The position numbers were made by a program, and so were the translations under genes. DNA of 64,000 bases. It comes from an uncultured Ignavibacteria bacterium. Its GTDB lineage: Bacteria > Zixibacteria > MSB-5A5 > CAIYYT01. Position 1 is the stretch's first letter; each line of letters starts with the position of its first letter. This document shows, one piece after another, positions 219 to 56,975 of this stretch. The stretch is from positions 25,588 to 89,587 of the forward strand of contig CAZOYE010000011.1 in assembly GCA_964584025.1 (NCBI GenBank). The letters run 5' to 3'. The notes below the pieces were generated by a model that saw only the letters and a list, made by a program, of their open reading frames with translations, did no database searches and was not told where the DNA came from.

Positions 219-1133
219 CTATCTGGCGAAGCGGAAGGAAGCAGTCAACTGGTGTACGCCTTCCTGGGAGGCCGTGGGCCGGTAGGAATAGTCGAGACCC
301 ATCTGGCCGAAGAAAAGTCCGGCGCCGAGAGACAGGCCGTCAGCAGAAGCACCGTTGTCTTCCAATTCGCTGCTGTAGCCGACGCGAACCGCCAGCGCAG
401 AGCTGTAGAGGTACTCTAAGCCACCACCGAGAACGAAGCCCTCGCCATTGGTCTTGGAACCCGCCACCGAGAAGGTTGATGCACCGAGCGTGCGGTAAGA
501 GGCGCCGAGGCGAAGAGTTGCCGGTAAGTTAATGCTCTCTTCGATATACTTCAGGGAGCCCCCAAGATTGGCGTACTGGAGACCCAGGGAGAGCCGTCCA
601 AACTGGGCCATGGCTCCGGCATCGAAGGTAATTGTGCTTGCAGAATAGTCGGCGAGTTTCTCAATGACCGGCTTGGCGGTCACGCCCACAGAGAGGACGT
701 CGCTTAAGCGCTGCGAGTAGCCGAGGCTGATTTGCATCGAGTAGGCAGACAGGTCGCCGGTAGCGACGCCCGCAACGTCGTAGCCCTGGATGTTTCCATA
801 GCCGAGATAGGTGACACCGATACCAAGTCCCCCGCTGCGCAGTGGGATTGCCAAGCTGAGATTGTCGAGGCGCAGGTCCTGCATCAACTCGGAATGGGTA
901 GCGGAAAGCTCGCCAGTGCCGTTTAAAGCGATTGCTGCCGGGTTGTAGAATAGAGCGGCGGCGCCTGAGGCGTTAGAGACACACGCGTTGCCCAGAGCGG
1001 CCCCACGTGAGTAAACAGGAATATTCAGGAAATCTGCCGCGTGAGTGCCGGAACCGGCAAGGACGTTTCCTGACGCCAGAAACAGGTTGAGGGCGGCGAT
1101 TGCTATGTGTCTAATCCAAGTGAACGAGTTCAT
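219..1133 (-). CDS. PorV/PorQ-family (FadL-like) outer-membrane beta-barrel protein, T9SS-associated
   Basis: N-terminal signal peptide (MNSFTWIRHIAIAALNLFLASGNVLA). Motif YSRGAALGNA...SGAAALFYNPAAIA resembles the PorV/FadL N-terminal signature G.A.GGA...D.SA..WNPAGL. Alternating beta-strand-like composition throughout. Confidence 0.45.
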   Translation of the reverse strand: MNSFTWIRHIAIAALNLFLASGNVLAGSGTHAADFLNIPVYSRGAALGNACVSNASGAAALFYNPAAIALNGTGELSATHSELMQDLRLDNLSLAIPLRSGGLGIGVTYLGYGNIQGYDVAGVATGDLSAYSMQISLGYSQRLSDVLSVGVTAKPVIEKLADYSASTITFDAGAMAQFGRLSLGLQYANLGGSLKYIEESINLPATLRLGASYRTLGASTFSVAGSKTNGEGFVLGGGLEYLYSSALAVRVGYSSELEDNGASADGLSLGAGLFFGQMGLDYSYRPTASQEGVHQLTASFRFAR

Positions 1134-1782: not shown

Positions 1783-4650
1783 ATGCGCTTGCGAATTCTA
1801 ATCTCATTCCTGCCCATAGGGCTGCTTGCCTACCAGAGCCTCGAGGCTGATATCAAATCTGCGGGCACTCCGAGCCAGATTATTATCGATCAACACAAAG
1901 CGCAAGGGCTGCCCTACCAGGGGGCGTTGTGGCACGCTGCGGAACAGGAATACATCCGACTTCTGGAGATTTCGCGCAGCCGGCCATCAACATCCAGGGA
2001 CGGCGGCAGCACGGCGGCTAATGCCACGCTGATTAGCAGCAGCAATTACCAGGACAACGGCACAACCGTCGGCAAAGGTAACGACGCGTCGATCACTTCG
2101 TGTACAAGCGGCGGCAACGATACAGCGGAAGATGCCTGGTATCGGCTTGAGTTAAGCGAACCCTCCATCGTCGACGTTTGGACGACGTGTGCTGCTTCGG
2201 GCCCACCGAGCTATGATACGCGCTTGGCGATCTTCAACGGCCAGTTTGCTCTCGTCGCCTGCAACGATGATGATCCTGCTTGCGGCAGCCCGAACCTGCA
2301 ATCGAAGATCGAGAGTCAGGCGTTAGGCGCCGGCATCTACTACGTCGTGGTCGACGGCTATAACGGCGCTTCGGGTCCTTACCAGTTGAACGTCGAGTGG
2401 AGCGCCGCGCCGCCGCCTTGCGCGAGCGGATCAAATCAGTCGAATGCGGAAGCGATCTCTTCCCTGCCGTTCAGTGACACGGGCACAACGGCGGGAACGT
2501 GCAATGATATCATCATCCAGTGTGAAAGCAGCGGACCGGACACAGCCCAGGATTACTGGTACTCGGTCGAATTGGATACCACGATGCTGCTAACCGTATG
2601 GACGACGTGCGGACCGCAATATCACGACAGCAAGCTGGCGATCCTGGATTCCAATCTCAATCAGCTCTACTGCAATGACGACAATCCGGGCTGCCCGAAC
2701 GATCAATCGCGGATTTCGCAAGCAGCGCTCCTGCCGGGCGTATATTACGTCATTGTCGACGGCTACCATGCCGAGGCCGGAGACTACGAAATCAACATCG
2801 AGGGTGTTCCGTATGATAGTTCGGTTATCGACACTCTGATGCCTGACATTATTATTCGGGAGGATGACCTCTACGATAACGAAATCTCGACCTCGGTGGT
2901 ACCGGGCCGGCGCCATCTGAAGTTGTCAAACGCGACGCCGAACCTGGGACCCGGGAAGCTCTACCTGTACGGTGTGTTGCCGGGTAATCCAGACGGCACG
3001 CAGGATGTACGGCAGCGAGTGTACCGCAGCGACGGGAGTTTCTTTGATCGCACGGCGGGCAAATTCATCTATCATCCCGGACACGATCATATTCATGTCG
3101 AGAATTGGGCGCAGTTCCGCCTGCGGGAGTTTCTCGCGGATTCGAGTATGGGAGCAATAATCGCAGAGGGCGAGAAGACAAGCTTCTGTATTCTCGATCT
3201 CGGAATCTACAACAGTTCACTTCCCAATTTTGACCCGGATGGTCAATTCCACTCGTGTTCGGGGACGATTCAAGGGCTGTCGGTCGGCTGGGTGGATATC
3301 TACAGTAAGGATCTGCCGGGACAGAATATTGACATCACAGACGTGCCGGATGGAATTTACTGGCTGGAATCGGTGGTTGATCCCGACAGCAATATTCTCG
3401 AAGAAAACGAAGCGAATAACGCATCGCGGATCATCGTGACGCTGGGCGACGGTCCCTTCGCGGTGGCGGATGCTTACGAGCCGAATGATTCATTCGCAGT
3501 CGTTGATTTGCGTCCGGTGGGCACCAACAACAGCCCGAATCTTGGGCCATGCAATCCGGAGCGCACAATTAGCGGACTGAGCATTCATAGCGCGAACAAT
3601 GATGACTACTATCGTTTCTACATGAATGAGACCGGCGGGAGCGGCGATTTCGTCAAGATCAATTTCAATAACGCCGTCGGTGACCTTGATCTCGAGTTGT
3701 ACTTTGGATCGCGATCGTTGGTGGCGATCTCGGCGACATCGGCGGATTCGGAATTTGTGTCAATGTCGGGGCGACCGCAAGGCTGGTACTATGTGAGGGT
3801 AAAGGGCTTCCAGGGAGCGATCAATCCGACGTATTCACTGACGATCAATCCCTCAACAAATGGCGCGCCGGCGGTGACCGTGGTTGATCCTCCGGTGGGG
3901 GACACCACGATGGTGCACGGTGTGGATACCTACAACGTGACGTGGAACTACGGCGATCCGGAAAACGACGAATGCTGGGTGACGGTGTACGTTAACGATA
4001 CCGCTGCTTTCAACGGTCAGGAACTGCTTCTGCCGACGTCTCTAAACGCGGCTGCCGCGCAACAGTTTTACATCGTCAATTCGGCTTACGTGCCGGAGCA
4101 TACGCCACTCTGGGTCTACTGCTCGATAACTGATGGCGGGACGACGACGGGCACGTGGTCGCAGGGCACGGTGACGTTCGTGGACCAGGCACACACGCAC
4201 GGATTGATTTCGGGGACGGTGATCGATGTCGATTCCCTGCCAATCGCGGATGCCGAGGTGGTCCTGAGCAATCATGCGCAGCGCGACACGACCGATGCCT
4301 TGGGAAATTTCCAGATCAACAACATCGAACCGGGATTCTACTCGCTAACGATATCGCATCCGGTCTATGGCGACACGACGCTGACGGACGTGATGATCAA
4401 CATCGCCGGGATCAAATCAAAGATCATTATGCTGGGCTGTGATTACGTCGCCGGCGACGCCGATGGTTCGAAATTAGTCAATATCTCGGACGCCGTTGCA
4501 CTGATTACCTACATCTTTGCAGGCGGACCAGCGCCGGATCCTGTGGAAGCCGGCGATGCCGACTGCAGCGGTACGGTCAATATCAGCGATGCCGTGTACT
4601 TGATTACCTACATCTTCGGTTCTGGCCCGGTGCCGTGCGGAGGGTGTTGA
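1783..4650 (+). CDS. secreted multidomain protein: 2x PPC-like domains, lysyl-oxidase-like catalytic domain, PPC domain, carboxypeptidase-regulatory-like domain, C-terminal tandem dockerin-like repeat
   Basis: The ORF-track frame runs 1690..4650; the likely start is the internal ATG at 1783 (MRLRILISFLPIGLLAYQSLEA signal peptide, AGGAGA RBS). Two repeats, DTAEDAWYRLEL...YYVVVDGY and DTAQDYWYSVEL...YYVIVDGY, look like PPC domains. HPGHDHIHVENW...KTSFCILD...GLSVGWVDIY...NIDITDVPDGIYWL matches the lysyl oxidase copper/LTQ region of animal LOX (WEWHSCHQHYH...ASFCLED...IDITDV). DAYEPNDSFAVV...DDYYRFY is a PPC domain. GTVIDVDSLPIADAEVVL...GNFQINNIEPGFYSLTISHPVYG looks like a CarboxypepD_reg domain. 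The C-terminus GDADGSKLVNISDAVALITYIF...GDADCSGTVNISDAVYLITYIFGSGPVPCGGC resembles a dockerin calcium loop repeated twice. Confidence 0.8.
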   Translation: MRLRILISFLPIGLLAYQSLEADIKSAGTPSQIIIDQHKAQGLPYQGALWHAAEQEYIRLLEISRSRPSTSRDGGSTAANATLISSSNYQDNGTTVGKGNDASITSCTSGGNDTAEDAWYRLELSEPSIVDVWTTCAASGPPSYDTRLAIFNGQFALVACNDDDPACGSPNLQSKIESQALGAGIYYVVVDGYNGASGPYQLNVEWSAAPPPCASGSNQSNAEAISSLPFSDTGTTAGTCNDIIIQCESSGPDTAQDYWYSVELDTTMLLTVWTTCGPQYHDSKLAILDSNLNQLYCNDDNPGCPNDQSRISQAALLPGVYYVIVDGYHAEAGDYEINIEGVPYDSSVIDTLMPDIIIREDDLYDNEISTSVVPGRRHLKLSNATPNLGPGKLYLYGVLPGNPDGTQDVRQRVYRSDGSFFDRTAGKFIYHPGHDHIHVENWAQFRLREFLADSSMGAIIAEGEKTSFCILDLGIYNSSLPNFDPDGQFHSCSGTIQGLSVGWVDIYSKDLPGQNIDITDVPDGIYWLESVVDPDSNILEENEANNASRIIVTLGDGPFAVADAYEPNDSFAVVDLRPVGTNNSPNLGPCNPERTISGLSIHSANNDDYYRFYMNETGGSGDFVKINFNNAVGDLDLELYFGSRSLVAISATSADSEFVSMSGRPQGWYYVRVKGFQGAINPTYSLTINPSTNGAPAVTVVDPPVGDTTMVHGVDTYNVTWNYGDPENDECWVTVYVNDTAAFNGQELLLPTSLNAAAAQQFYIVNSAYVPEHTPLWVYCSITDGGTTTGTWSQGTVTFVDQAHTHGLISGTVIDVDSLPIADAEVVLSNHAQRDTTDALGNFQINNIEPGFYSLTISHPVYGDTTLTDVMINIAGIKSKIIMLGCDYVAGDADGSKLVNISDAVALITYIFAGGPAPDPVEAGDADCSGTVNISDAVYLITYIFGSGPVPCGGC

Positions 4651-4686
4651 GGGGGGACTCTCAAAATCATGATAAGACCAGAAACG

Positions 4687-4724
4687 CAAAAAGCGTCCCG
4701 GGCGACCGGGACGCTTTCTTTTTG
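4687..4724. terminator. bidirectional Rho-independent terminator between convergent genes
   Basis: Perfect 10-bp stem AGCGTCCCGG/CCGGGACGCT (4692-4701 / 4706-4715) with a 4-nt loop, flanked by an A5 run upstream and TTCTTTTT downstream. Confidence 0.75.
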
Positions 4725-4749
4725 AATCCTATGTCGAATCTGACGATCG

Positions 4750-5193
4750 CTACTTCTTCCTCATGAAGACCATTGCTTTGAGGCGATTCTTCGGGAGCGG
4801 CGCCGGTTTCGGCTGGCCGGGTATGAAGACTTCGCTCGGATTAATCTTCTTGGAAAGCTCGCGGGGAATCTGCTTGGACGAGACGAAGTCGAATTTTTCG
4901 AAATACTTCGGCATGTCGGTGGCGAGCCAGACCGTGTCGGGTCCGTGCTCAAGCAGTTTCTTGACGATCAGCTTTCCCCAGCCCTTGCCGCGGAACTCTT
5001 CGGCGACGCCGAGCAGTTCAAGCTCAGTATAGCCGTCGTTGGCGCGCATGGCTCCAAATCCAAGGATCCGTTCATCATTCTTGAGAATGGTGAAGGAGTC
5101 GGGTGGTAGATCGGTCGGCGCGAGATCAAATTTTTCCACCATCCGCATGACCTGCCGGAATTCCATTTCCGACGGTTTCTTGAAGATCAACAT
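4750..5193 (-). CDS. GNAT family N-acetyltransferase
   Basis: Acetyl-CoA-binding motif LLGVAEEFRGKGWGKLIVKKLLE. Start taken at the internal Met (MLIFKK) rather than the longer ORF-track start. Confidence 0.7.
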   Translation of the reverse strand: MLIFKKPSEMEFRQVMRMVEKFDLAPTDLPPDSFTILKNDERILGFGAMRANDGYTELELLGVAEEFRGKGWGKLIVKKLLEHGPDTVWLATDMPKYFEKFDFVSSKQIPRELSKKINPSEVFIPGQPKPAPLPKNRLKAMVFMRKK

Positions 5194-5322
5194 CCTTTCC
5201 CTCCGGGACAATCTCGCAAAAATACGGCATTTGGACGAATCTGACGGCTTTCGCCGTTGCGTCCAAGAGCCCACCTTGACTTAACAGCTACATATTATAC
5301 GATATTTTCGCTCTTTTTCAAG

Positions 5323-5721
5323 CTAAATCTTGATACGGTCGGCGTGCTGACCGATAAACGGGATCGTAAACTCTTTTCCCTGAAGGGAATACAAGATTCC
5401 AAAGACTGCGGATCCGATCGAGAGAATCAGCAATATCCCCCAAAACAGGTTGGAAATAATGTCGAACATAAAGAAGATAGCAAGTATCTCGATAAAGAGC
5501 AGGATCAGACCTTGCTTTCCGTGACGGAATGCAAACTTATTGTGTCGCATTTTGATGAGAGGGACAAAGCAGAGAAACGGGACGTAGCCGAGAATAGCGG
5601 CCGCCTTGCCCTCTTCGATCATTTCCTCTTCACTCGAGTAATGCCTTGCCTCGGCTTCCGGGCCGGAATCGCCAGAATACGTTGCGTCGTCGCCGGTATT
5701 CTCGAATTCTCTATCATCCAT
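5323..5721 (-). CDS. DUF4870-family small membrane protein
   Basis: Acidic N-terminus followed by two transmembrane helices (ILGYVPFLCFVPLI ... LILLFIEILAIFFMF ... GILLILSIGSAVFGILY), which is the DUF4870 topology. Confidence 0.55.
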   Translation of the reverse strand: MDDREFENTGDDATYSGDSGPEAEARHYSSEEEMIEEGKAAAILGYVPFLCFVPLIKMRHNKFAFRHGKQGLILLFIEILAIFFMFDIISNLFWGILLILSIGSAVFGILYSLQGKEFTIPFIGQHADRIKI

Positions 5722-5736
5722 GAGGCCGCCTTCCGC

Positions 5737-7887
5737 CTAAACTTGCCAGAAATGCGCCTGCCCGGGGTCGGGCAGTTCCATCGCTATATAATTGGCCTCG
5801 GGCCATCTTTCAACAATTTTTTCGTTTTCGGCGCAGGCGACGGCGAAGTAGAGATGGCGGTCTTCGGTGAATTTCAACATATCGCGCGGCACCGCGACTT
5901 CGACGATTTGCTCCCAACGTGACTTGGGAGCGATTCCGGCATAGGGTGCACCGCCATCGATGCGGACTTGCGCTTCCGTCTGCGTGATGTCGATCGTCGC
6001 CTTGATGGCGCAGGCGATTTCGAGGCGGATCATGGTTGTTGCCGGTTCGATCGCAGCTTCCCTGTCGAAATCGATGCGGAAATAGAGATACTTGTCGTCG
6101 TAGCCGAAGAGAATGTGCGCAATCCGATTGTCGACACGGTGCATCGCGCCGCCGAGCTTGCTGCACTCGATTCTTCCAGCGCCGAACCACTCAAAGAAGC
6201 TGGTCTGGCGGCCGTCGATTGCGGGATGCAGGTAGTCGGTTGGTTCCTGGACTCCGGGCAAACGCGGGATGCGACGGATCGGACGAAGCAGCGCCAGCGG
6301 CGGCTCGATGCCGAGAGACTCCCAAATGTTCTGCAGATGCCGGCGGAAAAGCGCATCGAAGAGCTGGAAGTGGTCAGTCTGGTGTTCGTCGCCGTACCAC
6401 CAACACCAATCCGAGCCTTCGGCGATGTAGATCTCTTTCCAGCAGAACTCAAGGGTCGCTGCGTCAGGCGGGTCGGCGGAGTTCTGGCGTTCGACGAGTA
6501 TATCGCGGGTCTGAGTCAGCAGGTCCCAGGCGGCGTTATCCTCGGTATGCCCGATCCAGACGCGGAAATTGTGATTAATCCACGAGCCGGGAAAAAGGTG
6601 CGGCAGGTGATGGACGGTTGTGGAGCCGTCGAGAAGCTGTCGGGGAGTTACGGTCTCGATCGACAGTTCACGTTCGAGGCGGCTGTAGAGCGCACGCAGG
6701 AAGTCGTGTCCGTCGTTGGGGTAGTACTCCCAGGCATTCTCGCCGTCGAGAATAATCGAAACGACAGCCTCCTCCCCATTTGCTTTGTATAGCTTGTCGA
6801 GTTGGCGCAGATTGGCGATGAAATCGTCGGCGGCTTTCTCGGCGTTCCAACCGGAATAGACAAAGCCGATTTTGTCGGACATTTTGTGATCGCGGAAGAG
6901 AATCCCGAGCGGCGGCTCACCATCTCCCACGCTGAAGGCGCGATGGAAGCCGTTGCCGGCCACGTCAAGTTTGATGCCGCGATCTGCGGCGAGGCGAACG
7001 GAAGCCTGGTAGATTTCTTCATCGGTGGCGATCCAGCGCACACCGTGCTTGCGCAAGATGGGAAGGATCGACTCGGAGACGGAGCCTTCAGAGGGCCACA
7101 TGCCGAGTGCGGAATCCCCAAAGAGGCTGCGGTAGAGTTCAACCGAACGACGCACCTGCTCGTCGGCGTCCTCCGGGTGCGCGAAGCGCCGTTTCGGAAG
7201 CTCCATGTTGGGCAGCGCGGCGCGGGCGATTTCATGGTCGATCAGCAGCGGCAGGATCGGGTGATAATAGGGTGTGAACGACACTTCGATCTTGCCGGAA
7301 GCCGCGCGTTTCTGGTGTTCGGGAATGATCCGACCCAGCAGTTCGATCTGGAAATCAAGCAATGCGAGCTTTTCTTCCTCCGTGATATTGCGGCCGCGGG
7401 CGTAGAGCGGTTTGACCCGAGGATCGGAGCGAAACATCGGATCGACCCAGACGGCATTGGCCCAGAATTGCAGGTCGCATAGATCCTGCTCGCTGATGGC
7501 ACCGAGGCGCCGGCGTTGCGTGGCCTCTCGCGCCCGCTGTTGGAGTTCGAGGTACCGCGGGTAGGGTTTGATCATCGTCGCCTGATGTGCCGAGAAGAAG
7601 GTCTCGAGAATTTCGAACTTTTCGTCGTCGTGCAGTTCACCGGCGTTCTTGCGCGAAAGTTTCAGATGGCGGTCTTCGGCGCCGTTTTCGACGTAGTCGA
7701 CAATTTGATCAAGAAGCGATGGGACGAGATTGAACGTTTGCCGCAAGCGCGGGAATTCGTCCAGGATCAGCAGCATGTCGAGGTAGTCTTTGGCGCCGTG
7801 CAGACGGACCCACGGCATGAGGATTTCGCCCGACTTTGGATCCTTGTAGAAGGGCTGATGCATGTGCCAGATGAATACCAGCTTCAT
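5737..7887 (-). CDS. glycoside hydrolase family 57 protein (alpha-glucan branching/amylase-type)
   Basis: N-terminal KLVFIWHMHQPFY is the GH57 hallmark motif. 716 aa, consistent with a GH57 catalytic region plus C-terminal domain. Confidence 0.85.
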   Translation of the reverse strand: MKLVFIWHMHQPFYKDPKSGEILMPWVRLHGAKDYLDMLLILDEFPRLRQTFNLVPSLLDQIVDYVENGAEDRHLKLSRKNAGELHDDEKFEILETFFSAHQATMIKPYPRYLELQQRAREATQRRRLGAISEQDLCDLQFWANAVWVDPMFRSDPRVKPLYARGRNITEEEKLALLDFQIELLGRIIPEHQKRAASGKIEVSFTPYYHPILPLLIDHEIARAALPNMELPKRRFAHPEDADEQVRRSVELYRSLFGDSALGMWPSEGSVSESILPILRKHGVRWIATDEEIYQASVRLAADRGIKLDVAGNGFHRAFSVGDGEPPLGILFRDHKMSDKIGFVYSGWNAEKAADDFIANLRQLDKLYKANGEEAVVSIILDGENAWEYYPNDGHDFLRALYSRLERELSIETVTPRQLLDGSTTVHHLPHLFPGSWINHNFRVWIGHTEDNAAWDLLTQTRDILVERQNSADPPDAATLEFCWKEIYIAEGSDWCWWYGDEHQTDHFQLFDALFRRHLQNIWESLGIEPPLALLRPIRRIPRLPGVQEPTDYLHPAIDGRQTSFFEWFGAGRIECSKLGGAMHRVDNRIAHILFGYDDKYLYFRIDFDREAAIEPATTMIRLEIACAIKATIDITQTEAQVRIDGGAPYAGIAPKSRWEQIVEVAVPRDMLKFTEDRHLYFAVACAENEKIVERWPEANYIAMELPDPGQAHFWQV

Positions 7888-7905
7888 CGGCGAAACGCAG
7901 CTTTC

Positions 7906-8604
7906 TTATTTAAAGTCGCCCTGGTCGTAAGTCAGGATGCCCTTTTCGATCAGGATGATCCGGGCACTGCGATAGCGTTCCGAAGTGGTGCTCCGCTTGC
8001 CGAGCAGGTTGAAGGCCTCCTTGGCGGCGGTGGCGTCGCCAGCCTTGACGGCGTTCTCGACGGCATCGAAGAGGTCCTCGTCGTAGGTAGATGCCAGGGT
8101 GTCCGCCTTAGCGACTTCGAGGAAGCTCGCGGCGGCTTCCTGATAGCGCGCCTGGCCGGCGAGCGAGGCCGCGACACCGCGCCGGGCGGAGTGGCGGAAA
8201 TAGTTATCGATGGCGTACTTGTCGACATAGGTCTTGAAGGCCTGCTCGGCTTTGGCATAGTCGCCGGTCTGATACAGCAAGTTGGCCAGTTTAAAAGCGG
8301 CCTGAGCAGCGGCCGGAGTCGAGCCGTACTTGTTAATAACTTCCTCAAAATCGGTGACGGCCAGCTGAGTCTGGTTGGTGCGCATTTCGACCTCAGCACG
8401 TCCCAGCAGTTCGGCGGCCTTCTCTTCGGCGCTGCCAGCCTGCGCGACGTAGACCCAAATAGCGATGGCGATGACGAGCACGGCGACGACGCCGATCACG
8501 ATGTTCTTGAGATTTCCCTCGGCCCACTCTTCCAGTTTGAACATCCCAGTGACGAACTGATCTTCCTTCATTTCGTGCTTGGAGATTCTCTTCTTGGTCG
8601 TCAT
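7906..8604 (-). CDS. membrane-anchored TPR protein (YfgM-like)
   Basis: Single N-terminal transmembrane helix (IVIGVVAVLVIAIAIWVYV) followed by TPR-like Ala-rich repeats. It sits 19 nt upstream of GH57 in the same orientation. Confidence 0.55.
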   Translation of the reverse strand: MTTKKRISKHEMKEDQFVTGMFKLEEWAEGNLKNIVIGVVAVLVIAIAIWVYVAQAGSAEEKAAELLGRAEVEMRTNQTQLAVTDFEEVINKYGSTPAAAQAAFKLANLLYQTGDYAKAEQAFKTYVDKYAIDNYFRHSARRGVAASLAGQARYQEAAASFLEVAKADTLASTYDEDLFDAVENAVKAGDATAAKEAFNLLGKRSTTSERYRSARIILIEKGILTYDQGDFK

Positions 8605-8704
8605 CTAATCCATGGCTCCTGCTTAATCACTACGAATTTATCGACAGTTCTAACAAGACTCATAAGTTAAGGAATTCTTCGGATTTATCAACAGAAATTT
8701 AGGC

Positions 8705-8741
8705 GGAAAAAGCAGCGGGCGGGATAGCGTATCCCGCCCGC
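8705..8741 (-). terminator. Rho-independent terminator downstream of the PorV-like gene
   Basis: 10-bp perfect stem GCGGGCGGGA/TCCCGCCCGC (8715-8724 / 8732-8741) with a 7-nt loop. The A5 run on the plus strand (8706-8710) gives a T-run after the hairpin on the minus strand. Confidence 0.7.
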
Positions 8742-8766
8742 GGGTTGTCCGTTAAATCGTTGTCGC

Positions 8767-10323
8767 TTAGAAGTAGCCGGTGAAATTCACGAAGAAGCGC
8801 GGCGACTTCTTGGTCCGGGTGTTCTCGTACTCGAGAATACTCTGCTCAAGGATTTCGGCGCCCTTCTCGGTCTGCTCTTCGGTACTGAACTCTGCCGCCA
8901 AATCCACGTGGATTTGCGACCAGTGAATTCCCGTGCCGAAGGAGAAGGTCGTTCGCGTGACGTTGTCACCGAGGACGAATCCTTCGAGAGGCTGGTCGTC
9001 TACGTTTCTCTGGAGGTCGCTGACATCGCGGTACGGGAGCTTGGTGTAACGGAAACCGGCACGCAGCGGGAAGGTCCCCAACTTGCTGGGAACCAGGTAC
9101 TCACCACCGAGCCGGATTTGGTAACTGGACTCGAGATCAAGCTCGAACTCGTTGAAAATCTCGATATACTCGCCTTTGGCATCGTAATAGGACGTTTCGG
9201 TCGAATCGACGTAGTAAATCGAGCCGGGGAGAGTGAAGAGATTGACGGAATCAGCGGAGTTATTCGGCGCCTGCTCTGAACGCACGTAATATTTCACACT
9301 GCTCGAACTACGAACCTCGAAGTCAGCAGACACAGTGAATGCCGTCGTCGGTTTGGCGGCAACACCGAAACCGATAGTGAGGGGCTGTTCGACCTTGGTC
9401 TTGGCACGAAAGAGAGTTGGTTTGATCGCTACGGGAGTTCCCTGACCCGGAGCATCCAGGGAACGAAATGAGATCGTATCGGCGCGCTTCAAGTCGTGAT
9501 CAGTCGCCATTTCAAATGGGAGCTGAACATTGACGCCGACCTGGACCTTCTCCGCCTGATAGAGGAAGCCGGCACCAAAGCCGAAGCCGGAGAGATCGGT
9601 TAAATCTTCCATCCTTATTCTGTCGTAGAATTCAACGGAGTCGAGCACCTGTCCGGCGAAGAACAACTCGGTTGAATCGAGAACTGCGCGCAGGTATTCA
9701 CCGCGGCCAGAGCCACTATACACGTTCGCGACGATACCGCCGGAGAGACGACCGTAAATGCCGGTGCCAAAACCGAGGGAGAATTTATCAACGTGGCCGT
9801 TCTGAGTGCTCGTGAAGTTCGCAGCAGTCAACTCCTCCATCTCGTATGCCGTCACCGGCTGCAAGTAGTAGAAGGTGTCATCGCGCTTTCCAAGGCGATC
9901 ATCGCTGTTATCCTGGATTCGTTGATAGGTTCCCGAGCCGACAAAGAGATGACCCTTAATCCGAATCGGGGCTACGAAAGAGCCAAATTCGAGGTTGAGA
10001 AGATCTTTGGTTAGTTTGGTAGTGAGGTTCCTGGATGAGGAGCCAACGTAGTTGAAGGAGTTCTCGGTTTCATGTCGATAGACCGAACCGGCGACAGAGG
10101 CTTGCGTCTTGGTGACCTGAATGAGCCCGGCCGGATTCCAAGTTAGCGCAGAAGCGTCATCGGCGAGGCCGACAAAAGCGCCGCCCATACCGCGAGCGCG
10201 CGCGCCGGCACCGAGGTGCTCCTGGTCGTACATGCTAAATCCATATAAGTGAAAATCTTGCGCAACTGCAGACCCCACCGCCAAAAGGAATATTAGCAAC
10301 CCACTCGCTGCAAATCTCCGCAT
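8767..10323 (-). CDS. PorV-like (FadL-type) outer-membrane beta-barrel protein, T9SS-associated
   Basis: Signal peptide MRRFAASGLLIFLLAVGSAVAQDF. The motif GAGARARGMGGAFVGLADDASALTWNPAGL matches the PorV/FadL N-terminal signature closely. C-terminal aromatic (…FTGYF) gives an outer-membrane beta-signal. Confidence 0.55.
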   Translation of the reverse strand: MRRFAASGLLIFLLAVGSAVAQDFHLYGFSMYDQEHLGAGARARGMGGAFVGLADDASALTWNPAGLIQVTKTQASVAGSVYRHETENSFNYVGSSSRNLTTKLTKDLLNLEFGSFVAPIRIKGHLFVGSGTYQRIQDNSDDRLGKRDDTFYYLQPVTAYEMEELTAANFTSTQNGHVDKFSLGFGTGIYGRLSGGIVANVYSGSGRGEYLRAVLDSTELFFAGQVLDSVEFYDRIRMEDLTDLSGFGFGAGFLYQAEKVQVGVNVQLPFEMATDHDLKRADTISFRSLDAPGQGTPVAIKPTLFRAKTKVEQPLTIGFGVAAKPTTAFTVSADFEVRSSSSVKYYVRSEQAPNNSADSVNLFTLPGSIYYVDSTETSYYDAKGEYIEIFNEFELDLESSYQIRLGGEYLVPSKLGTFPLRAGFRYTKLPYRDVSDLQRNVDDQPLEGFVLGDNVTRTTFSFGTGIHWSQIHVDLAAEFSTEEQTEKGAEILEQSILEYENTRTKKSPRFFVNFTGYF

Positions 10324-14167: not shown

Positions 14168-15577
14168 TCAGCGGTAACTTTCGCTTTCGATATCCTTTTC
14201 CCATTCAGGATTCTGGATCTCGCCCTTGATGGTGGAATGGACCAGGCGGTAGTTGCCGTAACCATCCTGATCGACAAAGAGACAATAATCACCGCCGGCC
14301 TGATTGGGCAGACGGTCGTAATACCATTTTTCGTACGGCTTTTGCCCCATTGCCGATGGCTTGCGTTCGACGTTGTCGGGCTGGCCATAAGTGATGTAGA
14401 CTCGGCCGCGATCGGTTTTCCAGCCATCTTCGCGCGCGATCAACGAGGTCGAGTAGTACTGATTGGCATAGGCAAACCGCCGAAAGATCTCGTTCTTGAA
14501 CGTATTGATCTTGCTTCCCGGCGAGGGATTTTTTCTCTCCCAGAACTGGCCGAGAAAGTTCTTCTTGCCCTCGAGGTCGAGATCGCGATAGAGGGCTTTT
14601 TCTTCCTTGGTCGTGACGTACTTGATGACGTTTTCCATCAGGTCAGCATCATCCTGGGTGAACTGGTCGGGCGTGATCTGCGTGGGCGCAAGCTGTTCGA
14701 AATTGTAGATCATCCAGAATTTCTTGGAAGCGCTGGTCTTGTTGCCGGTTGCCAGGTCTTCGACGATCACGCTGAGTTCATAGGTGCCGCCGGGGATGCC
14801 GGCAATGTTGACCTTTTCCATGAGCACGGCGCTCGTCCCCGGTTTGTGCCGACGTTTGACGGGGTACTCACGCATATCGAAGCCGTAGTTGTCGCGGAGC
14901 AAGGTCTTGACTTCAAAGTTCTCCCCTTCTCCCGTACCCGCGGCAAAGTTGTAGACTTCGGCATAGAAGTACACGAGCGTGTCCTCGTTGGAGAAATAGC
15001 GATTCGGGTTTGGCAGAACGCGCCGATTAGCCTTGATCAGCGACGAGAGGGGGTCGAAGCCCGGCGAGTTGACTTCGAGAGTATCGATCGAGTACGCCAA
15101 CTCGAGGTCGGACATCGCGAAGTGATCCGTCGTGAAGTCGCGCACCTGCAAGTCGAAGGTCGCAAGTCCGCTGCGCTTGGTCTTGTAGTCGACAGCGGTC
15201 ACTTTCATGCTATAGGCGCCACTCGGCAACAGCAGGGGCAGAACCTCGAAGATGCGAACGTCGGTCTTGTAGGCGTCATCCAGAAAGCGCACCCCCATCG
15301 GCACGAGTTTAGAACTGGAGTCGATTACGGCGCCGTGGTGGTCTTTGGCTTCAACGTACAACAGCGCCAGAGCCGAGTAGTAGTTGCTGTCGACTTCGAA
15401 CTGGAAGTCGGCCCGCTGGATGGCGACGTAGATTTCGACATAGGTTTTGCTGCGATCCTGGAAATAGATATACGAGCTTCCATCGGCCCAGACGCGAATC
15501 GGCTCGACGCCGCTTTGTGCCTGCAGCGCTGCGGCGCTAACGATCAGGAGCGCCATGGCCCATTGCATTGCTCTCAT
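14168..15577 (-). CDS. GWxTD domain-containing secreted protein (paralogue 2)
   Basis: C-terminal GWKTDRGRVYITYGQPD is the GWxTD motif. Signal peptide MRAMQWAMALLIVSAAALQAQ. Start taken at the internal Met to avoid overlapping the upstream paralogue. Confidence 0.7.
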   Translation of the reverse strand: MRAMQWAMALLIVSAAALQAQSGVEPIRVWADGSSYIYFQDRSKTYVEIYVAIQRADFQFEVDSNYYSALALLYVEAKDHHGAVIDSSSKLVPMGVRFLDDAYKTDVRIFEVLPLLLPSGAYSMKVTAVDYKTKRSGLATFDLQVRDFTTDHFAMSDLELAYSIDTLEVNSPGFDPLSSLIKANRRVLPNPNRYFSNEDTLVYFYAEVYNFAAGTGEGENFEVKTLLRDNYGFDMREYPVKRRHKPGTSAVLMEKVNIAGIPGGTYELSVIVEDLATGNKTSASKKFWMIYNFEQLAPTQITPDQFTQDDADLMENVIKYVTTKEEKALYRDLDLEGKKNFLGQFWERKNPSPGSKINTFKNEIFRRFAYANQYYSTSLIAREDGWKTDRGRVYITYGQPDNVERKPSAMGQKPYEKWYYDRLPNQAGGDYCLFVDQDGYGNYRLVHSTIKGEIQNPEWEKDIESESYR

Positions 15578-15603
15578 ACGAATATTAACTCCTGTCAGGG
15601 GCC

Positions 15604-16914
15604 TTATGGCCCGAGTGTCCCACGACTTCGCCAATCACCGTCGTACGGGTACTGCAACTGCATGTCGCCGTCCCCGCGCGTATCTTCAAAAACGAAAGTG
15701 CGCCGTTGCGTAAAATAGTACCAAACCTGATAGGGCTTGCGTCCGAGTTCGAAGGGATGATTATCGATGTCATCGGGCGCACCGTAGCGGATATAGATCA
15801 TGCCCCGATCCGATTGCCAGCCTTCGCGGTTGACGGTCGAATAGTATTGGTTCGCATAGCGGATGCGGCGATAGTACTCTTCGCGAAACTCGTTTTCAGG
15901 ACTGCTGGGTGTCGGGTCTTTAGACTTCCACCAGTCTTCAAACGCCTGTTCGCGGAGTGAATCGGGCGTCTGCTCGAGGGCCTTTTTTTCATCTTTCTTG
16001 AGCACGTACTTCAACTGGCTCAGCGCATAGTCAAAATCGTTGCGCAAGAGGCTCTGGAGCGACCACTTGACCTGAAAGGCTTCTTCCCGTTCAGCCAGAT
16101 TCTCGCCCTGGTAATCGAGTCGGACCTTGAGGAAGTAATCGCCCGGAACGAGGTCGCCGATCTCAACGAACTGCTGAACGCCGAGGACGGTAGTATCGAC
16201 CGGGACTTCATTGTCTTTGCGAACATCAAAGCCGGAGCGTCGGGCGCGGAGCTCGTACGACAGGGTCATTTGCTTGTTGACGTAGTCGGCTGCATAGATC
16301 TCGACATAGAACCCGAGGGGTTGCTCATCGGAGTCGAAGGCGCGCTCGACTGTCGGAACGGCAGCCAAGCCGTGTTTGTTGAAGGGCGAGCTGCTGTCGA
16401 CCGAAGTGATCTCCTGGATGAACTGAATATCCGAGAGATCGCGGGCGCGTTTGAAGGGGTAACTCTCGATCGTGCCTTCAATCGTCTGGACGTCGTTGGA
16501 GTTGTGGTCGATCAGCTTGCAGACCAGTCGATACTGCCCCGGCGGAATCGGTAGAGTCAGCTGATTGATCAAGAAGCCGCGATCGGACTTGGTGAGGTCG
16601 TAGCTATCAAGGACATAGGTACGCTCGACCGAGCGGCCGGTAACCTGCAGGTCGTGCTCGCCGAGGACGATAACGTTGACTTCGTAGTTGGCGATATACT
16701 TGTCGGCTTTCTTGACGTAGTTCAGGCCGTCATTGAAGATCTTGTAGTAGACCTCAAGACGATTCTGGGCTCCGGTATCGGCGAAGACGGCGACATCCAT
16801 GAAGAACTTCGAACGATCCAGGTTGATATCGTCGCCGCCTTCGGCTAAAAGCGCCGAAGCGGCAGCAAGAACCTGAATAAGAAGGATTGGAAGAAGGCTG
16901 CGAAATCTGGGCAT
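15604..16914 (-). CDS. GWxTD domain-containing secreted protein (paralogue 1)
   Basis: EGWQSDRGMIYIRYGAPDDID GWxTD motif. Signal peptide MPRFRSLLPILLIQVLAAASALLA. Architecture parallels the adjacent paralogue. Confidence 0.7.
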   Translation of the reverse strand: MPRFRSLLPILLIQVLAAASALLAEGGDDINLDRSKFFMDVAVFADTGAQNRLEVYYKIFNDGLNYVKKADKYIANYEVNVIVLGEHDLQVTGRSVERTYVLDSYDLTKSDRGFLINQLTLPIPPGQYRLVCKLIDHNSNDVQTIEGTIESYPFKRARDLSDIQFIQEITSVDSSSPFNKHGLAAVPTVERAFDSDEQPLGFYVEIYAADYVNKQMTLSYELRARRSGFDVRKDNEVPVDTTVLGVQQFVEIGDLVPGDYFLKVRLDYQGENLAEREEAFQVKWSLQSLLRNDFDYALSQLKYVLKKDEKKALEQTPDSLREQAFEDWWKSKDPTPSSPENEFREEYYRRIRYANQYYSTVNREGWQSDRGMIYIRYGAPDDIDNHPFELGRKPYQVWYYFTQRRTFVFEDTRGDGDMQLQYPYDGDWRSRGTLGP

Positions 16915-17038: not shown

Positions 17039-18280
17039 CTACTCGTAACGGAGGCTGACAATCGGGTCGACCGAGGCCGCCCGCCAGGCCGGCATGATAC
17101 CGGCGAGCAGGCCGACACCCGCCGCGATGACAAAGCTGATGAAGATCCAGACAAACGGCACCACCATAGGCAGGGGTGACAAGGCAGAAATCACAAAGGC
17201 GAGGACGAGCCCGCAAACGATGCCGATCATGCCACCCGTGCCGGATAGCGTCATGGCTTCCACCAGGAATTGGAAAAAGATATTGGCGCGGCGGGCACCG
17301 ATAGCCTTGCGGATACCGATTTCGCGCGTCCGCTCGGTAACCGAAACCAGCATGATATTAAGCACCCCGATGCCACCGACGAGCAACCCGACTGAGGCGA
17401 TTACCATCATGGCCACCCAGATGCCCAGAGTAAGTTGTTTGTAGGAATCGAGCAGGGTCTCCTGAGTGACGATGGCGAAATTGTCGTCGTCGCTGTACCT
17501 GACACCCCGTAGTCGCCGCAGGGCCTGACGGATTTCATCCTCGGCCTTCCGCATGGTCGTGGGGCTGCTGGCCTTGACGGCGAGCATGAGTTCTTTCTCC
17601 CAGGGATACATTTTCTGAAAGGTTCCGTATGGCAGCATAATGGTGTTGTCATTGGAATCGATCAAGGATGAGCGACGTTTCTCCATGACGCCGACGACGC
17701 GAAGGCGATTGTCGTTGACGAGGATGCTCTTGCCAATGGGCGATTCGTTGGGAAACAAGGTTTCGGAGATATCTTTGCCGATCACGCAGACCATGGCGCG
17801 GTGGAAGTCTTCGGAGGGCAGGAAAAAGCGGCCCTGTCCGATGTAGTGGTTGTTGACGGCTTCGTAATCGACGCTGGTGCCGAAGAGCGCAGAGCGGCTG
17901 GAGCTGTTGTTCTTGTACTTGACGATATTGCCGCCGGGGCGGAAGTAGTAGTTCTGGGGGCTCACGCCGTTGACACTGGGGCAATTCTCACGAATGGCGT
18001 TGGCCTCATCGAGCGTGATCGGTTTACGACTGCGTTCCTTTTCGGTGAGTTCGTTCCAGTTGGTGTTCGGCGGGTATTTCATAACCCAGAAGACATTGGA
18101 GCCCATAGCTTCGATGTCATCCGCGACGGCGCTGTTTAGACCCTGAATGAGCGATACCATCCCGATGACAGAGGCCACGCCGATCAGGACGCCGATGATG
18201 GTCATGATCGAACGGAACTTATTCGAGCGGATGGAATCGAGCGCCATGAGGACGCTTTCTTTGGTCTCGAAGATGTTCAT
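17039..18280 (-). CDS. ABC transporter permease, FtsX/MacB-like (paralogue B)
   Basis: MacB_PCD-like periplasmic domain flanked by a transmembrane helix, then a C-terminal FtsX 3-TM bundle (…[15 protein letters not shown]…). 4-nt overlap with the upstream gene. Confidence 0.8.
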   Translation of the reverse strand: MNIFETKESVLMALDSIRSNKFRSIMTIIGVLIGVASVIGMVSLIQGLNSAVADDIEAMGSNVFWVMKYPPNTNWNELTEKERSRKPITLDEANAIRENCPSVNGVSPQNYYFRPGGNIVKYKNNSSSRSALFGTSVDYEAVNNHYIGQGRFFLPSEDFHRAMVCVIGKDISETLFPNESPIGKSILVNDNRLRVVGVMEKRRSSLIDSNDNTIMLPYGTFQKMYPWEKELMLAVKASSPTTMRKAEDEIRQALRRLRGVRYSDDDNFAIVTQETLLDSYKQLTLGIWVAMMVIASVGLLVGGIGVLNIMLVSVTERTREIGIRKAIGARRANIFFQFLVEAMTLSGTGGMIGIVCGLVLAFVISALSPLPMVVPFVWIFISFVIAAGVGLLAGIMPAWRAASVDPIVSLRYE

Positions 18281-19494
18281 GACTCAAATCTCATGGCATC
18301 GACCGGATCGAGCTTGGCGGCTTTCCAGGCCGGATAGATCCCGAAAAAGATCCCGATGCTGGTCGGGATCAGGAGGCCGGTTGCCACCGCTGTCGGAGAA
18401 ATCACAAACGGTACGCCGAGCCAGTCGGAACAGAAGAACGAGATAAGAAGTCCCAGCGAGAGGCCGATGATACCGCCCTGCAAGGACATCAGGAGAGCTT
18501 CCAGCAAGAATTGCGACAGAATATTGCGACCGCGGGCACCGACGGCTTTGCGGATGCCGATTTCGCGGGTGCGCTCGGTCACGGAGACCATCATGATGTT
18601 CATGACGACAATCCCGGCGACAACCACCGAAATCAGCGGAATCATCATGCCGACGACGCGCGCGACGCCGGTAAAGTTCTCGACGAAGCCCATGATGGAG
18701 TCCTTGGTAAGCATGCCGAAGTCATCGGGATCGTGGTAACCGACATGGCGGCGCGCCCGCATTACCTGTCGAATTTGGTCCATCGCCTGATCCATCAACT
18801 CCTCGGAACGGACCTTGACCATAATGCTGACGTCCTGATGGCGGCCGGTGTATTTGAGCATCGTCTGGATCGGCACGTAACAGAAGCGATCGAGGTTTTC
18901 GCCGAAAATCGAACCGCGCTTCTTGTTGACGCCGATGACGGTGAACGAGGCGCCCCGGATAATGATCTCCTTGCCGAGGGGGTCCTCATAGGGGAAAAAC
19001 TTGTTCTTGATCTCTTCGCCGATGACTACCAGTTGGCGACGATGCTGGTCATCGAGGGCAGTAAAGAAACGGCCTTCCACGATCTCGATGTTGTTGATCT
19101 GGCCGGCATTGGCAGAGAGCCCTTCGATATGGACGTTGTATAGCGATTTGTTGTCACGCTTCACGGTGACGTTGCGTTCGCAAGAGACTCCGACGGCTTC
19201 CGCCAACGGCACCGACCGTTCGATAGCCCGGGCATCTTCAACGGTGATCTTCTTGCGCTTGATCGCCTTGAACCACTCGTCTTCCGACGTGATAATACCG
19301 AATCGCGTGACGTAGACCGTCGAAGCCCCCATTTCGTCAAAAACGTTGGCGATGCGGCGCATCATGCCGTCGAGCACCGAGATGATCGCAATCACTGAAG
19401 CGACGCCGATCATAACGCCGAGCAGCGTCAGGAAGGTGCGCAGCTTGTGTGCCCACAAGGCGGCGCCGGCGAGCTTCAGGGTCTCATAGATCAT
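18277..19494 (-). CDS. ABC transporter permease, FtsX/MacB-like (paralogue A)
   Basis: Same architecture as paralogue B (…[15 protein letters not shown]…). Tandem duplicate. Confidence 0.8.
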
Positions 19495-20195
19495 AGATTG
19501 GCGGTTTCTGAGGAGGTGATAACCTCTTTCTCAATATTGCCGTCGCGGATGTAGATGACCCGATTCGCATGCAGGGCGATGTCGGGTTCGTGGGTGACGA
19601 CGATAATCGTGTTTCCTTCGAGATGGAGTCGCGCAAACAGCCCCATGATTTCCTCGCCGGTCTTGGTATCGAGATTACCCGTCGGTTCGTCGGCGAGGAT
19701 GATCGACGGCTCGTTGACCAGCGCGCGAGCGATCGCGACGCGCTGGCGCTGGCCGCCTGAAAGCTCGTTAGGCTTGTGATACATGCGGTCGGACAAGTCG
19801 ACTAATTCGAGGGCGCGCTTGGCTTTTTCGATACGAGTTTTGGAATCGGTGCCGTTGTAGATCAGCGGTAACTCGACGTTGTGCAGAGCCGTCGCCCGGG
19901 CGAGCAGGTTAAAGGTCTGGAAGACAAAGCCGATTTCGCGGTTGCGAATCAGGGCGAGGTCGTCGTCGTTCATCTTGGCGACTTCCTTGCCGTTGAGCCG
20001 GTAGCTACCCTGCGACGGAGTATCGAGACAGCCGATCAGGTTCATCAGGGTGGACTTTCCGGAACCGGAGGGCCCCATGATCGCCAGGTATTCGCCTTTT
20101 TCGACATAGAAGTTGACTCCGCGCAACGCGTGGAGTTCTTCGCTGCCCATCTTGTAGGTTTTCCAGATGTTTTCGGTCTCGATCAGATGCATCAT
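19491..20195 (-). CDS. ABC transporter ATP-binding protein (MacB/LolD type)
   Basis: Walker [11 protein letters not shown], signature [15 protein letters not shown], Walker [13 protein letters not shown]. Confidence 0.9.
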
Positions 20196-21496: not shown

Positions 21497-21551
21497 TATT
21501 CAACTCCACGAGTACCCACTCTCAGCAGCCCAACTGGACTGCCATCGGCAA

Positions 21552-51689: not shown

Positions 51690-51791
51690 GGATATGTTGG
51701 AAGATATTAGATCGTGCGCTGAGGCGCAAGCCATGAAATGGCTCAAGCATAATAGAATCAGTTCTCGATGATGTAATGATCGAAGAGCGGA

Positions 51792-52652: not shown

Positions 52653-52655
52653 ATC

Positions 52656-53360: not shown

Positions 53361-53362
53361 AA

Positions 53363-54487: not shown

Positions 54488-54490
54488 TTC

Positions 54491-56970: not shown

Positions 56971-56975
56971 AACTC

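Follow-up and report, generated by a model that had tools for sequence, protein, structure and literature searches.

In type I dockerins from the cellulosomes of clostridia and ruminococci (PF00404; for example that of Clostridium thermocellum Doc435, solved with the OlpC cohesin in PDB 4DH2), two tandem F-hand Ca2+ loops are accompanied by helices, an arrangement that recurs in the module described here. In solved dockerins, residues -1 to -3 contact the C-terminal residues and form a non-covalent 'intramolecular clasp', which is important for stability, for folding induced by Ca2+ and for the binding of cohesins; such clasps have been described as stacking or electrostatic, with no mention of cysteines or disulfides (PMC3821032). 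Non-cellulosomal dockerins are widespread yet functionally obscure, and they are often called 'orphan' when no cohesin is annotated. For Candidatus Stygibacter (Cloacimonadota), a system was proposed in which dockerin-bearing enzymes are matched by a cohesin scaffoldin with a C-terminal domain of the type IX secretion system (T9SS) (PMC8542988). Here, a C-terminal module was analysed that is shared by two secreted proteins encoded in a 64,000-nucleotide stretch (hereafter the window) of contig CAZOYE010000011.1, from an uncultured Ignavibacteria bacterium. This module is an authentic dockerin of type I, with a duplicated Ca2+-binding F-hand and two antiparallel helices, and it belongs to a distinct cysteine-flanked dockerin subfamily that has undergone a huge expansion among uncultured Zixibacteria-like bacteria of the FCB group (Fibrobacteres, Chlorobi and Bacteroidetes). 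With a probability of roughly 0.6, it is read as a cysteine-clasped type I dockerin operating in a non-cellulosomal cohesin-dockerin docking system, and not as a new sorting signal.

The two proteins, hereafter proteins 1 and 2, and the parts of their modules are located in the window as follows.

1783..4650, + strand: protein 1, 955 amino acids (aa), open reading frame (ORF) from the ATG at 1783; signal-peptide-like N-terminus, two PPC domains, lysyl-oxidase-like domain, CarboxypepD_reg domain and C-terminal dockerin (Pfam)
4438..4647, + strand: dockerin module of protein 1 with its flanking cysteines, subtype A
4453..4536, + strand: repeat 1 of protein 1, GDADGSKLVNISDAVALITYIFAGGPAP, Ca loop (D1, D3, S5, N9, D12) and helix
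4552..4635, + strand: repeat 2 of protein 1, GDADCSGTVNISDAVYLITYIFGSGPVP, with 21 of 28 residues as in repeat 1
4636..4647, + strand: tail of protein 1, CGGC, family pattern CxxC[x]-end
37546..38844, + strand: protein 2, 432 aa; signal-peptide-like N-terminus, conserved beta-rich domain of no matched family and C-terminal dockerin
38641..38841, + strand: dockerin module of protein 2, subtype B
38650..38733, + strand: repeat 1 of protein 2, GDCDNNGIWTISDAVCLLSYLFWGGPYP
38749..38832, + strand: repeat 2 of protein 2, GDADGNKIITISDAVYIITHVFGGGPQP
38833..38841, + strand: tail of protein 2, GGC

An earlier note on this DNA had described two dockerin-like repeats of about 30 residues on two unrelated secreted proteins, and both ORFs, the repeats and the shared C-terminus were found as described. 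Only the last ~70 residues are common to the two proteins. The modules are 54% identical over 65 residues, with an E value of 1e-21 that ruled out chance or low-complexity similarity, and outside them (886 residues in protein 1, 360 residues in protein 2) no similarity was detected (best E 0.97). Each module comprises two 28-residue calcium-loop/helix repeats followed by a tail that ends in cysteine. All four repeats follow the pattern D-x-D-x-[S/N]-x-x-x-[N/T]-x-x-D and then a hydrophobic helix, with the EF-hand-type loop ligands D1, D3, S/N5, N/T9 and D12 present in every one, and both modules would be expected to bind Ca2+. The C-terminus of protein 1 reads ...LGCDYVA-GDADGSKLVNISDAVALITYIFAGGPAP-DPVEA-GDADCSGTVNISDAVYLITYIFGSGPVP-CGGC before the stop, and the four cysteines of its module are found at position -5, at loop-2 position 4 and at both cysteines of the C-G-G-C tail. 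Protein 2 ends in ...AECKC-GDCDNNGIWTISDAVCLLSYLFWGGPYP-GLTCL-GDADGNKIITISDAVYIITHVFGGGPQP-GGC and the stop, and its module contains six cysteines: those of the C-K-C ahead of repeat 1, a GDCD/DAVC pair within repeat 1, one in the linker, two residues ahead of repeat 2, and the terminal one. A six-frame motif scan revealed no third copy of the module in any other ORF of the window. Pfam scores along protein 1 were 60.2 bits for Lysyl_oxidase, 54.5 for PPC, 49.1 for CarboxypepD_reg and 26.1 for Dockerin_1, and the N-terminal 360 residues of protein 2 matched no Pfam or NCBIfam family; an AlphaFold2 model of full-length protein 2, built with 13 orthologues, was of low confidence, with a mean predicted local distance difference test (pLDDT) value of 56.6. 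Genes identical to both were present on the Logan assemblies of runs SRR14787577, SRR14787579 and SRR14787580.

The suggestion that the repeats are dockerin-like was borne out by Pfam for protein 1, by profile matches in the PDB and by the predicted fold. A search with Pfam Dockerin_1 (PF00404, gathering threshold 22.9 bits) had been proposed as a check, and its outcome was divided. Protein 1 passed, with 26.1 bits for the whole protein and 31.9 bits (E 1.5e-7) for the module alone, and the module of protein 2 taken alone remained under the threshold (13.8 bits, E 0.069). Two orthologues of protein 2 (P0157 and P0165) carry a precomputed PF00404 annotation, and Dockerin_1 matched 75 of 80 related representatives. 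When a profile of 24 family members was compared with the PDB, 13 distinct sequences were retrieved, all of them dockerins, with E values down to 7e-9. The 76 C-terminal residues of protein 1 were modelled with AlphaFold2 from 63 aligned sequences, resulting in a model of mean pLDDT 90.1 with helices at 22-34, 42-45 and 55-67. The best 33 Foldseek matches of this model in the PDB were all dockerins, cohesin-bound or free, with probabilities of 0.87-1.00 (at least 0.93 for the top 32), template modelling (TM) scores normalised to the target mostly of 0.65-0.81, and identities of at most 35%. When proteins were searched through a word index, the matches to the module were all short fragments (41-133 aa). 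The dockerin domain family is already annotated in databases, and such proteins in Zixibacteria metagenome-assembled genomes (MAGs) bear the NCBI name 'dockerin type I (repeat/domain)-containing protein'.

The subfamily was delimited with a 61-column profile from which the flanking cysteines and the tail had been deliberately excluded. Among 1.84 billion cluster representatives, this profile matched 24,300 at E<=1e-3 and 5,087 at E<=1e-10, and cysteine statistics were obtained from the best 150 of the 24,300. In this sample, 84 full-length modules lay within 8 residues of the protein end, and every one of them (84/84) had a tail cysteine, most commonly in the pattern CxxCx (44/84). A cysteine was also found within 6 residues upstream in 68 of the 84, usually directly ahead of the loop-1 glycine, and internal modules had one within 8 residues after GGPxP in 144 of 166 cases. 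Two arrangements predominate in the family, and both are represented in the window: type A, that of protein 1 (C-GDADG ... GDADC[N/S] ... GGPxP-CxxC[x]-end), and type B, that of protein 2 (CxC-GD ... PxxxC[L/N/Q]-GDADG ... GGPxP-x(G)C-end). Longer cysteine-rich tails, such as PCxCxxWLxxCGxPLRK and PCDxDGDGxPDC, also occur in the family.

Some members carry many modules: proteins of ~1,100 aa (P0001, P0003, P0005, P0007, P0013) have 8-9 tandem dockerin-like modules and a subtilisin-like C-terminus, and P0004 and P0010 have 12-14 modules and end in non-peptidase tails. Very small members were also observed. One of 95 aa on a 28-kb contig (P0038) comprises a hydrophobic N-terminus and one dockerin of the cysteine-clasped type, with no cargo, and cargo-free mini-proteins of the same kind were seen on contigs of 0.3-1.9 Mb (P0253, P0264, P0299); these could be genuine proteins or products of truncated gene calls.

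Conservation was also followed within orthologues and related genomes. The N-terminal domain of protein 2 retrieved 17 proteins when used as query, with 15 complete or partial orthologues recognised, and in an alignment of the 13 complete ones (43-85% identity) C366, C368, C400 and the terminal C432 were invariant. An ordinary dockerin whose terminal cysteine is lost in orthologues, which the earlier note had named as speaking against its proposal, was therefore not what the alignment showed. The extra pair GDCD/DAVC (loop-1 position 2 and helix-1 position 15) was complete in 7 of the 13 and lacking altogether in 6, never reduced to a single cysteine, and two orthologues have another extra pair (IC...GC). 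No orthologue of protein 1 was found among the related genome loci; its homologues came from a scan of metagenome contigs, and the contig of one of them, 88% identical (L088), ends ahead of the C-terminus.

A scan of 185,579 species-representative genomes returned at least 573 stretches, at least 553 of them confirmed. The best 80 of these at least 573 stretches came from MAGs titled Candidatus Zixiibacteriota, candidate division Zixibacteria, 'uncultured Ignavibacteria bacterium' or 'bacterium', with up to 10 loci from a single MAG, and 79 loci (0.87 Mb) were analysed. They contain 124 module ORFs, and 30 of the 79 loci hold two to four module genes. The module is at the extreme C-terminus in 117 of the 124, and among these 117 terminal modules 115 have the tail cysteine and 81 the CxxCx pattern. 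One locus (L060, CAZNWJ010000011.1) is syntenic with the window between 33.4 and 44.1 kb at 84-89% nucleotide identity, and the CAZNWJ assembly is therefore the closest relative among the matches listed. In that locus, three tandem module genes (4258..6219, 6223..7482 and 7597..8856) occupy the place where the window has one, and at least 13 module ORFs were counted in 8 sampled loci of the assembly, so that the module is not confined to the window, an absence elsewhere being one of the outcomes that the earlier note had named as speaking against it. A gene for a phospholipase-D-like PLDc_2 protein, at 38919..40586 (- strand) in the window and just downstream of protein 2, is missing from the otherwise syntenic locus.

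These data altogether establish the terminal cysteine as a conserved, family-defining feature that is unmentioned in the dockerin structural papers examined. It had been pointed out earlier that this residue is conserved and that classical dockerins do not have it; the first statement holds for 13/13 orthologues of protein 2, 84/84 terminal modules and 115/117 in related MAGs, and the second agrees with the published clasps, which are non-covalent and formed without cysteine (PMC3821032). A literature search for dockerins with disulfides or cysteines gave nothing relevant.

The role of the cysteines was approached through their co-occurrence, computed as phi across 312 distinct modules. The cysteine at -3 was linked with the linker cysteine (phi 0.82), m3 with m16 (0.77), and the cysteine at loop-2 position 4 with tail positions +1 and +4 (0.72 and 0.62, respectively), and the cysteine at -1 was generic, being present in 59% of modules. 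Counts per module were mostly even, with four as the mode in the terminal modules of the best 150 (44/84), and terminal modules of related MAGs had exactly four in 79 of 116 and an even number in 98 of 116. There were also 41 internal modules with exactly two cysteines, counted over six residues upstream, the core and eight downstream, and the two-cysteine examples listed (such as P0002 and P0004) have one in each flank. The cysteines of the family thus occupy three places: just before loop 1, in or before loop 2, and within the tail of 3-5 residues. Because extra cysteines appear only in pairs, disulfides are the favoured reading, and because the family cysteines sit where the N- and C-flanks of solved dockerins touch, the terminal cysteine is probably the C-terminal half of a disulfide clasp. 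After Sec export, the module cysteines would be oxidised, and one disulfide would join the C-terminal tail to the residue or residues just upstream of loop 1, and would thus provide in covalent form the N-to-C clasp that is non-covalent, and stabilising, in cellulosomal dockerins. In four-cysteine modules, a second disulfide may fix the tail or the N-flank to loop 2 or to the linker.

The same four cysteines might instead form, on an unchanged dockerin fold, a structural Zn(Cys)4 site contributed by the N-flank, loop 2 or the linker, and the tail. Such a site would suit the commonest cysteine count in both samples, and spacings such as CxxC and CxC are characteristic of zinc knuckles. It is nevertheless considered unlikely, since these proteins pass through Sec and oxidation is the usual fate of exported domains, many copies have two cysteines only (the 41 internal modules, with one per flank in the listed examples), and extra cysteines are gained or lost strictly pairwise (m3/m16, both in 7 and neither in 6), as fits disulfides.

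The earlier note had also placed T9SS components in the neighbourhood and had suggested a distinct anchoring or sorting module. As regards the first point, the window contains the following genes.

219..1133, - strand: PorV/PorQ-family outer-membrane protein (NCBIfam NF033709, 167.7 bits against a cutoff of 90), divergently adjoining protein 1
8767..10323, - strand: weak matches to PorV/BamG-like models
50496..51746, - strand: Por_Secre_tail match below cutoff (19.5 against 23)

Thus, one PorV/PorQ-family gene is indeed nearby, the other matches are weak or below cutoff, and no core T9SS machinery gene was found in the window. Proteins 1 and 2 matched none of the Pfam or NCBIfam models for T9SS C-terminal domains, either of type A (TIGR04183/PF18962) or of type B (CHU_C), and none of the NCBIfam CTERM models for exosortase-, rhombosortase- or myxosortase-type signals (PEP-CTERM, GlyGly-CTERM, MYXO-CTERM). 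Both end at the cysteine, with no transmembrane helix or basic tail after it. However, the C-terminal position of the dockerin can be taken by a T9SS signal in other proteins: homologues of the lysyl-oxidase-like core of protein 1 from metagenome contigs (51-54% identity; L084:2339-6949, L085, L086 and L087:1379-4165) carry a T9SS type A C-terminal domain in its place, with a Por_Secre_tail score of 69.6 bits in L084. From this swap it would appear that diderm bacteria have two alternative ways of bringing a protein to the same place on the cell surface. In addition, three representatives (P0032, P0036, P0059) have their own T9SS C-terminal domain as well as a dockerin that is located internally or at the N-terminus.

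It might be argued from the swap that the module is itself a secretion or sorting signal, read by the T9SS or by another outer-membrane translocon, or cut by a sortase-like enzyme at the terminal cysteine. Its near-constant position at the extreme C-terminus (117/124) and the PorV/PorQ-family gene beside protein 1 would agree with this explanation, which is regarded as very unlikely. First, a dockerin is an alpha-helical fold, whereas T9SS C-terminal domains are beta-sandwiches, and no Por_Secre_tail, CHU_C or CTERM match, transmembrane helix or basic tail marks these ends. Second, the module also occurs internally or N-terminally, at times in a protein with its own T9SS C-terminal domain, which is unexpected for a signal, and a C-terminal location is typical of cellulosomal dockerins as well. 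Of the earlier suggestion, therefore, anchoring is retained, in the form of cohesin-dockerin docking, and a distinct sorting module becomes unnecessary, given the dockerin fold, the lack of a basic or transmembrane tail and the presence of cognate cohesins.

Such cohesins were not evident from Pfam, whose Cohesin family matched 4 of the 80 representatives; likewise, no cohesin was found in ten guessed representatives by Pfam or in two by PDB sequence search. The lead came from two approximate clostridial cohesin sequences, which gave one marginal match by phmmer/jackhmmer, an ORF of locus L045 (E 1.3e-3). From this ORF a family of ~140 residues, designated A6, was grown and then checked independently by Pfam and by a profile search against the PDB. 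Its consensus is ...GDSVxIPIYxTNDxxLxGFSLGFxYNSxDIExTSVDFTGS...GGLLATLWxQVPxGTPxQ...DSxFVxPxGEFIF...DCGxAD. The A6 profile matched 18 cohesins in the PDB and essentially nothing else (best 4dh2_A, E 7e-10), and one representative (P0029) passed the Pfam Cohesin gathering score at 34.1 bits, with three others just under it. The lineages that have the cysteine-flanked dockerins also encode a divergent, cognate cohesin family. The A6 domain was present in 29 of the 150 representatives at E<=1e-10, and in 18 of the 80. The spacing is fixed, a dockerin lying 8-33 residues (mostly ~20) upstream of the cohesin and often another 6-8 residues downstream, and the resulting dockerin-cohesin-dockerin (Doc-Coh-Doc) units were seen, for example, in P0028 and P0029, and in P0015, P0075, P0102 and 24 other representatives listed with the unit.

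Related MAG loci carry the A6 domain as well (L027 of the CAZNWJ assembly, L030, L045, L051, L054, L064). In L030, L051, L054 and L064, proteins of 246-274 aa comprise nothing but a signal peptide, a single cohesin-like domain and a single dockerin, and those of L045 and L027 are larger proteins of the same cohesin-like/dockerin type (about 285-290 aa); all of these could be adaptors or self-associating units. A further protein of the CAZNWJ assembly (L053, ~8240..9280, - strand, CAZNWJ010000003.1), encoded ~2 kb from a dockerin gene, matches the cohesins weakly (hmmsearch E 8e-6; hhalign probability 72%, E 3e-5) in a domain behind which lies a C-terminal domain of T9SS type A (Por_Secre_tail, 37.8 bits), and it is a candidate surface anchor in this assembly. 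The link to the T9SS is indirect, resting on the C-terminal swap in cargo proteins and on this one candidate. No multi-cohesin scaffoldin was seen among the representatives and related MAG loci. The search for cohesin-like partners advised in the earlier note was thus productive in relatives, the CAZNWJ assembly among them, and negative in the window, where the A6 profile found no encoded cohesin.

The module could also be a dockerin that works independently of cohesins, acting as a Ca2+-stabilised tail for adhesion to polysaccharide or to the outer membrane, or as a stabiliser of its cargo. A similar role is suspected for many orphan non-cellulosomal dockerins, and many genomes reportedly hold dockerins without recognisable cohesins. 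The window itself has none, a cohesin is present in just 6 of the 124 module ORFs of related loci, and the cargo is mostly other than carbohydrate-active enzymes (CAZymes). Even so, this explanation is considered unlikely, since 29 of 150 representatives have a cognate-looking cohesin fused beside these dockerins, and the CAZNWJ assembly has it too, near-identical helix surfaces are kept in both repeats, as in dual-binding-mode dockerins, and the 'orphan' status may be an annotation artefact, given that Pfam misses most of these cohesins (4/80 against 18/80).

Cohesin-dockerin anchoring is the economical reading because a dockerin fold and a cognate cohesin family occur in the same lineages. 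According to this model, the stapled dockerin would dock in a Ca2+-dependent manner onto the divergent cohesins of these lineages, supplied by Doc-Coh-Doc units, by the small adaptors with signal peptide, cohesin and dockerin, and possibly by a cohesin-like protein anchored through a T9SS C-terminal domain. Proteins 1 and 2 would then be 'client' proteins, probably located at the surface, bound by a cohesin of this kind and recruited to a non-cellulosomal extracellular or cell-surface assembly. Several observations weigh against this reading. The module of protein 2 alone is under the Dockerin_1 threshold, and the window encodes no cohesin. The disulfides are deduced from co-occurrence only, a Zn(Cys)4 site would fit the four-cysteine sets equally well, and the upstream cysteine of protein 1 is at -5 where the usual site is -1. 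Moreover, the window proteins have no T9SS C-terminal domain, and the reading offers no explanation for their passage through the outer membrane to a surface-anchored partner; the cohesin assignment of the T9SS-anchored candidate of the CAZNWJ assembly is weak.

A more far-reaching scenario can be drawn, although it is improbable. Zixibacteria-like bacteria might possess a large undescribed cohesin-dockerin system, in which disulfide-clasped dockerins and divergent cohesins, the latter mostly overlooked by standard models, are daisy-chained through Doc-Coh-Doc units into a surface network, and in which clients without a T9SS signal dock in the periplasm on cohesin-bearing T9SS substrates and are exported with them as folded complexes ('hitch-hiking'). 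The literature searched appears to contain no description of the cysteine clasp, of the size of the Zixibacteria-like expansion or of the hidden cohesin family with its Doc-Coh-Doc units, and no paper naming Zixibacteria together with dockerins was found in it. A sharply defined large subfamily, with a putative built-in cysteine clasp and cognate cohesins that Pfam largely misses, would make the orphan-dockerin question testable across a candidate phylum, and a small, disulfide-stapled dockerin/cohesin pair could serve as an orthogonal protein-assembly tool.

Three other regions of the window were noticed. Two adjacent genes for GWxTD-domain proteins (14168..16914 and 17039..22877, both - strand) adjoin a MacB/FtsX permease pair, an ABC ATPase, an HlyD-type adaptor and an outer-membrane efflux protein. 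An exopolysaccharide export cluster at 51792..58715 (- strand) comprises a DUF3473-type polysaccharide deacetylase, a ParA-like ATPase, a TPR protein, a Wzz-like protein, a Poly_export/SLBB protein and a GGDEF diguanylate cyclase. At 58799..63131 (- strand), a 940-aa protein combines an HATPase_c_2 anti-sigma-type kinase domain, HAMP, a SpoIIE phosphatase domain and transposase-like HTH_28/HTH_32 domains. As a fusion of the partner-switching type it is unusual, and its neighbours are a STAS-domain protein and a ParA/MinD-like ATPase.

Compared with the dockerins of cellulosomes, the module has the same three-helix fold (Foldseek probability 1.00, TM ~0.7), is likewise C-terminal on secreted proteins and is built of near-symmetrical repeats; moreover, the best cohesin match of family A6, 4dh2_A, is the partner chain in the dockerin entry 4DH2. 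Identity to solved dockerins is at most 35%, and several traits set the family apart from cellulosomal members. It has the strongly conserved signature NISDAVYLIxYIFxGGPxP, and conserved cysteines are found at -1 (or -3/-1), in the linker or at loop-2 position 4, and within a tail of 3-5 residues with which the protein ends. Its host is a diderm FCB bacterium, unlike cellulosome hosts, and its cargo consists of a lysyl-oxidase-like protein, peptidases and PKD/TSP3/FG-GAP proteins rather than plant-cell-wall enzymes. PKD, TSP3, He_PIG, FG-GAP and peptidase domains were common in the cargo of the 80 relatives, no glycoside hydrolase family was within their top 25 partner domains, and the combination that marks a cellulosome, namely CAZyme cargo and a multi-cohesin scaffoldin with a carbohydrate-binding module, was not seen. 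With the dockerin of Ruminococcus flavefaciens ScaA, whose clasp is formed by W(-1) and P75 (PMC3821032), the family shares the contact zone between N-flank and C-terminus, its cysteines being placed at -1 and at +1 to +5, and the difference would lie in the contact, non-covalent in ScaA and proposed to be a disulfide here.

The system proposed for Candidatus Stygibacter (PMC8542988) is alike in belonging to a diderm candidate phylum, in having C-terminal dockerins on peptidases and other non-cellulolytic enzymes, and in its cohesin-bearing partners, with the T9SS as proposed anchoring route of the cohesin protein. It differs in phylum, its report has no description of a cysteine clasp, and the present lineages have Doc-Coh-Doc units and small cohesin-dockerin adaptors, with no large multi-cohesin scaffoldin seen. 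Finally, the T9SS type A C-terminal domain (TIGR04183/PF18962) takes the same C-terminal place on homologous cargo (L084 and L087 against protein 1) and is presumably used, like the dockerin, for surface localisation, although the folds are unrelated, a beta-sandwich in the one and a helical EF-hand pair in the other.

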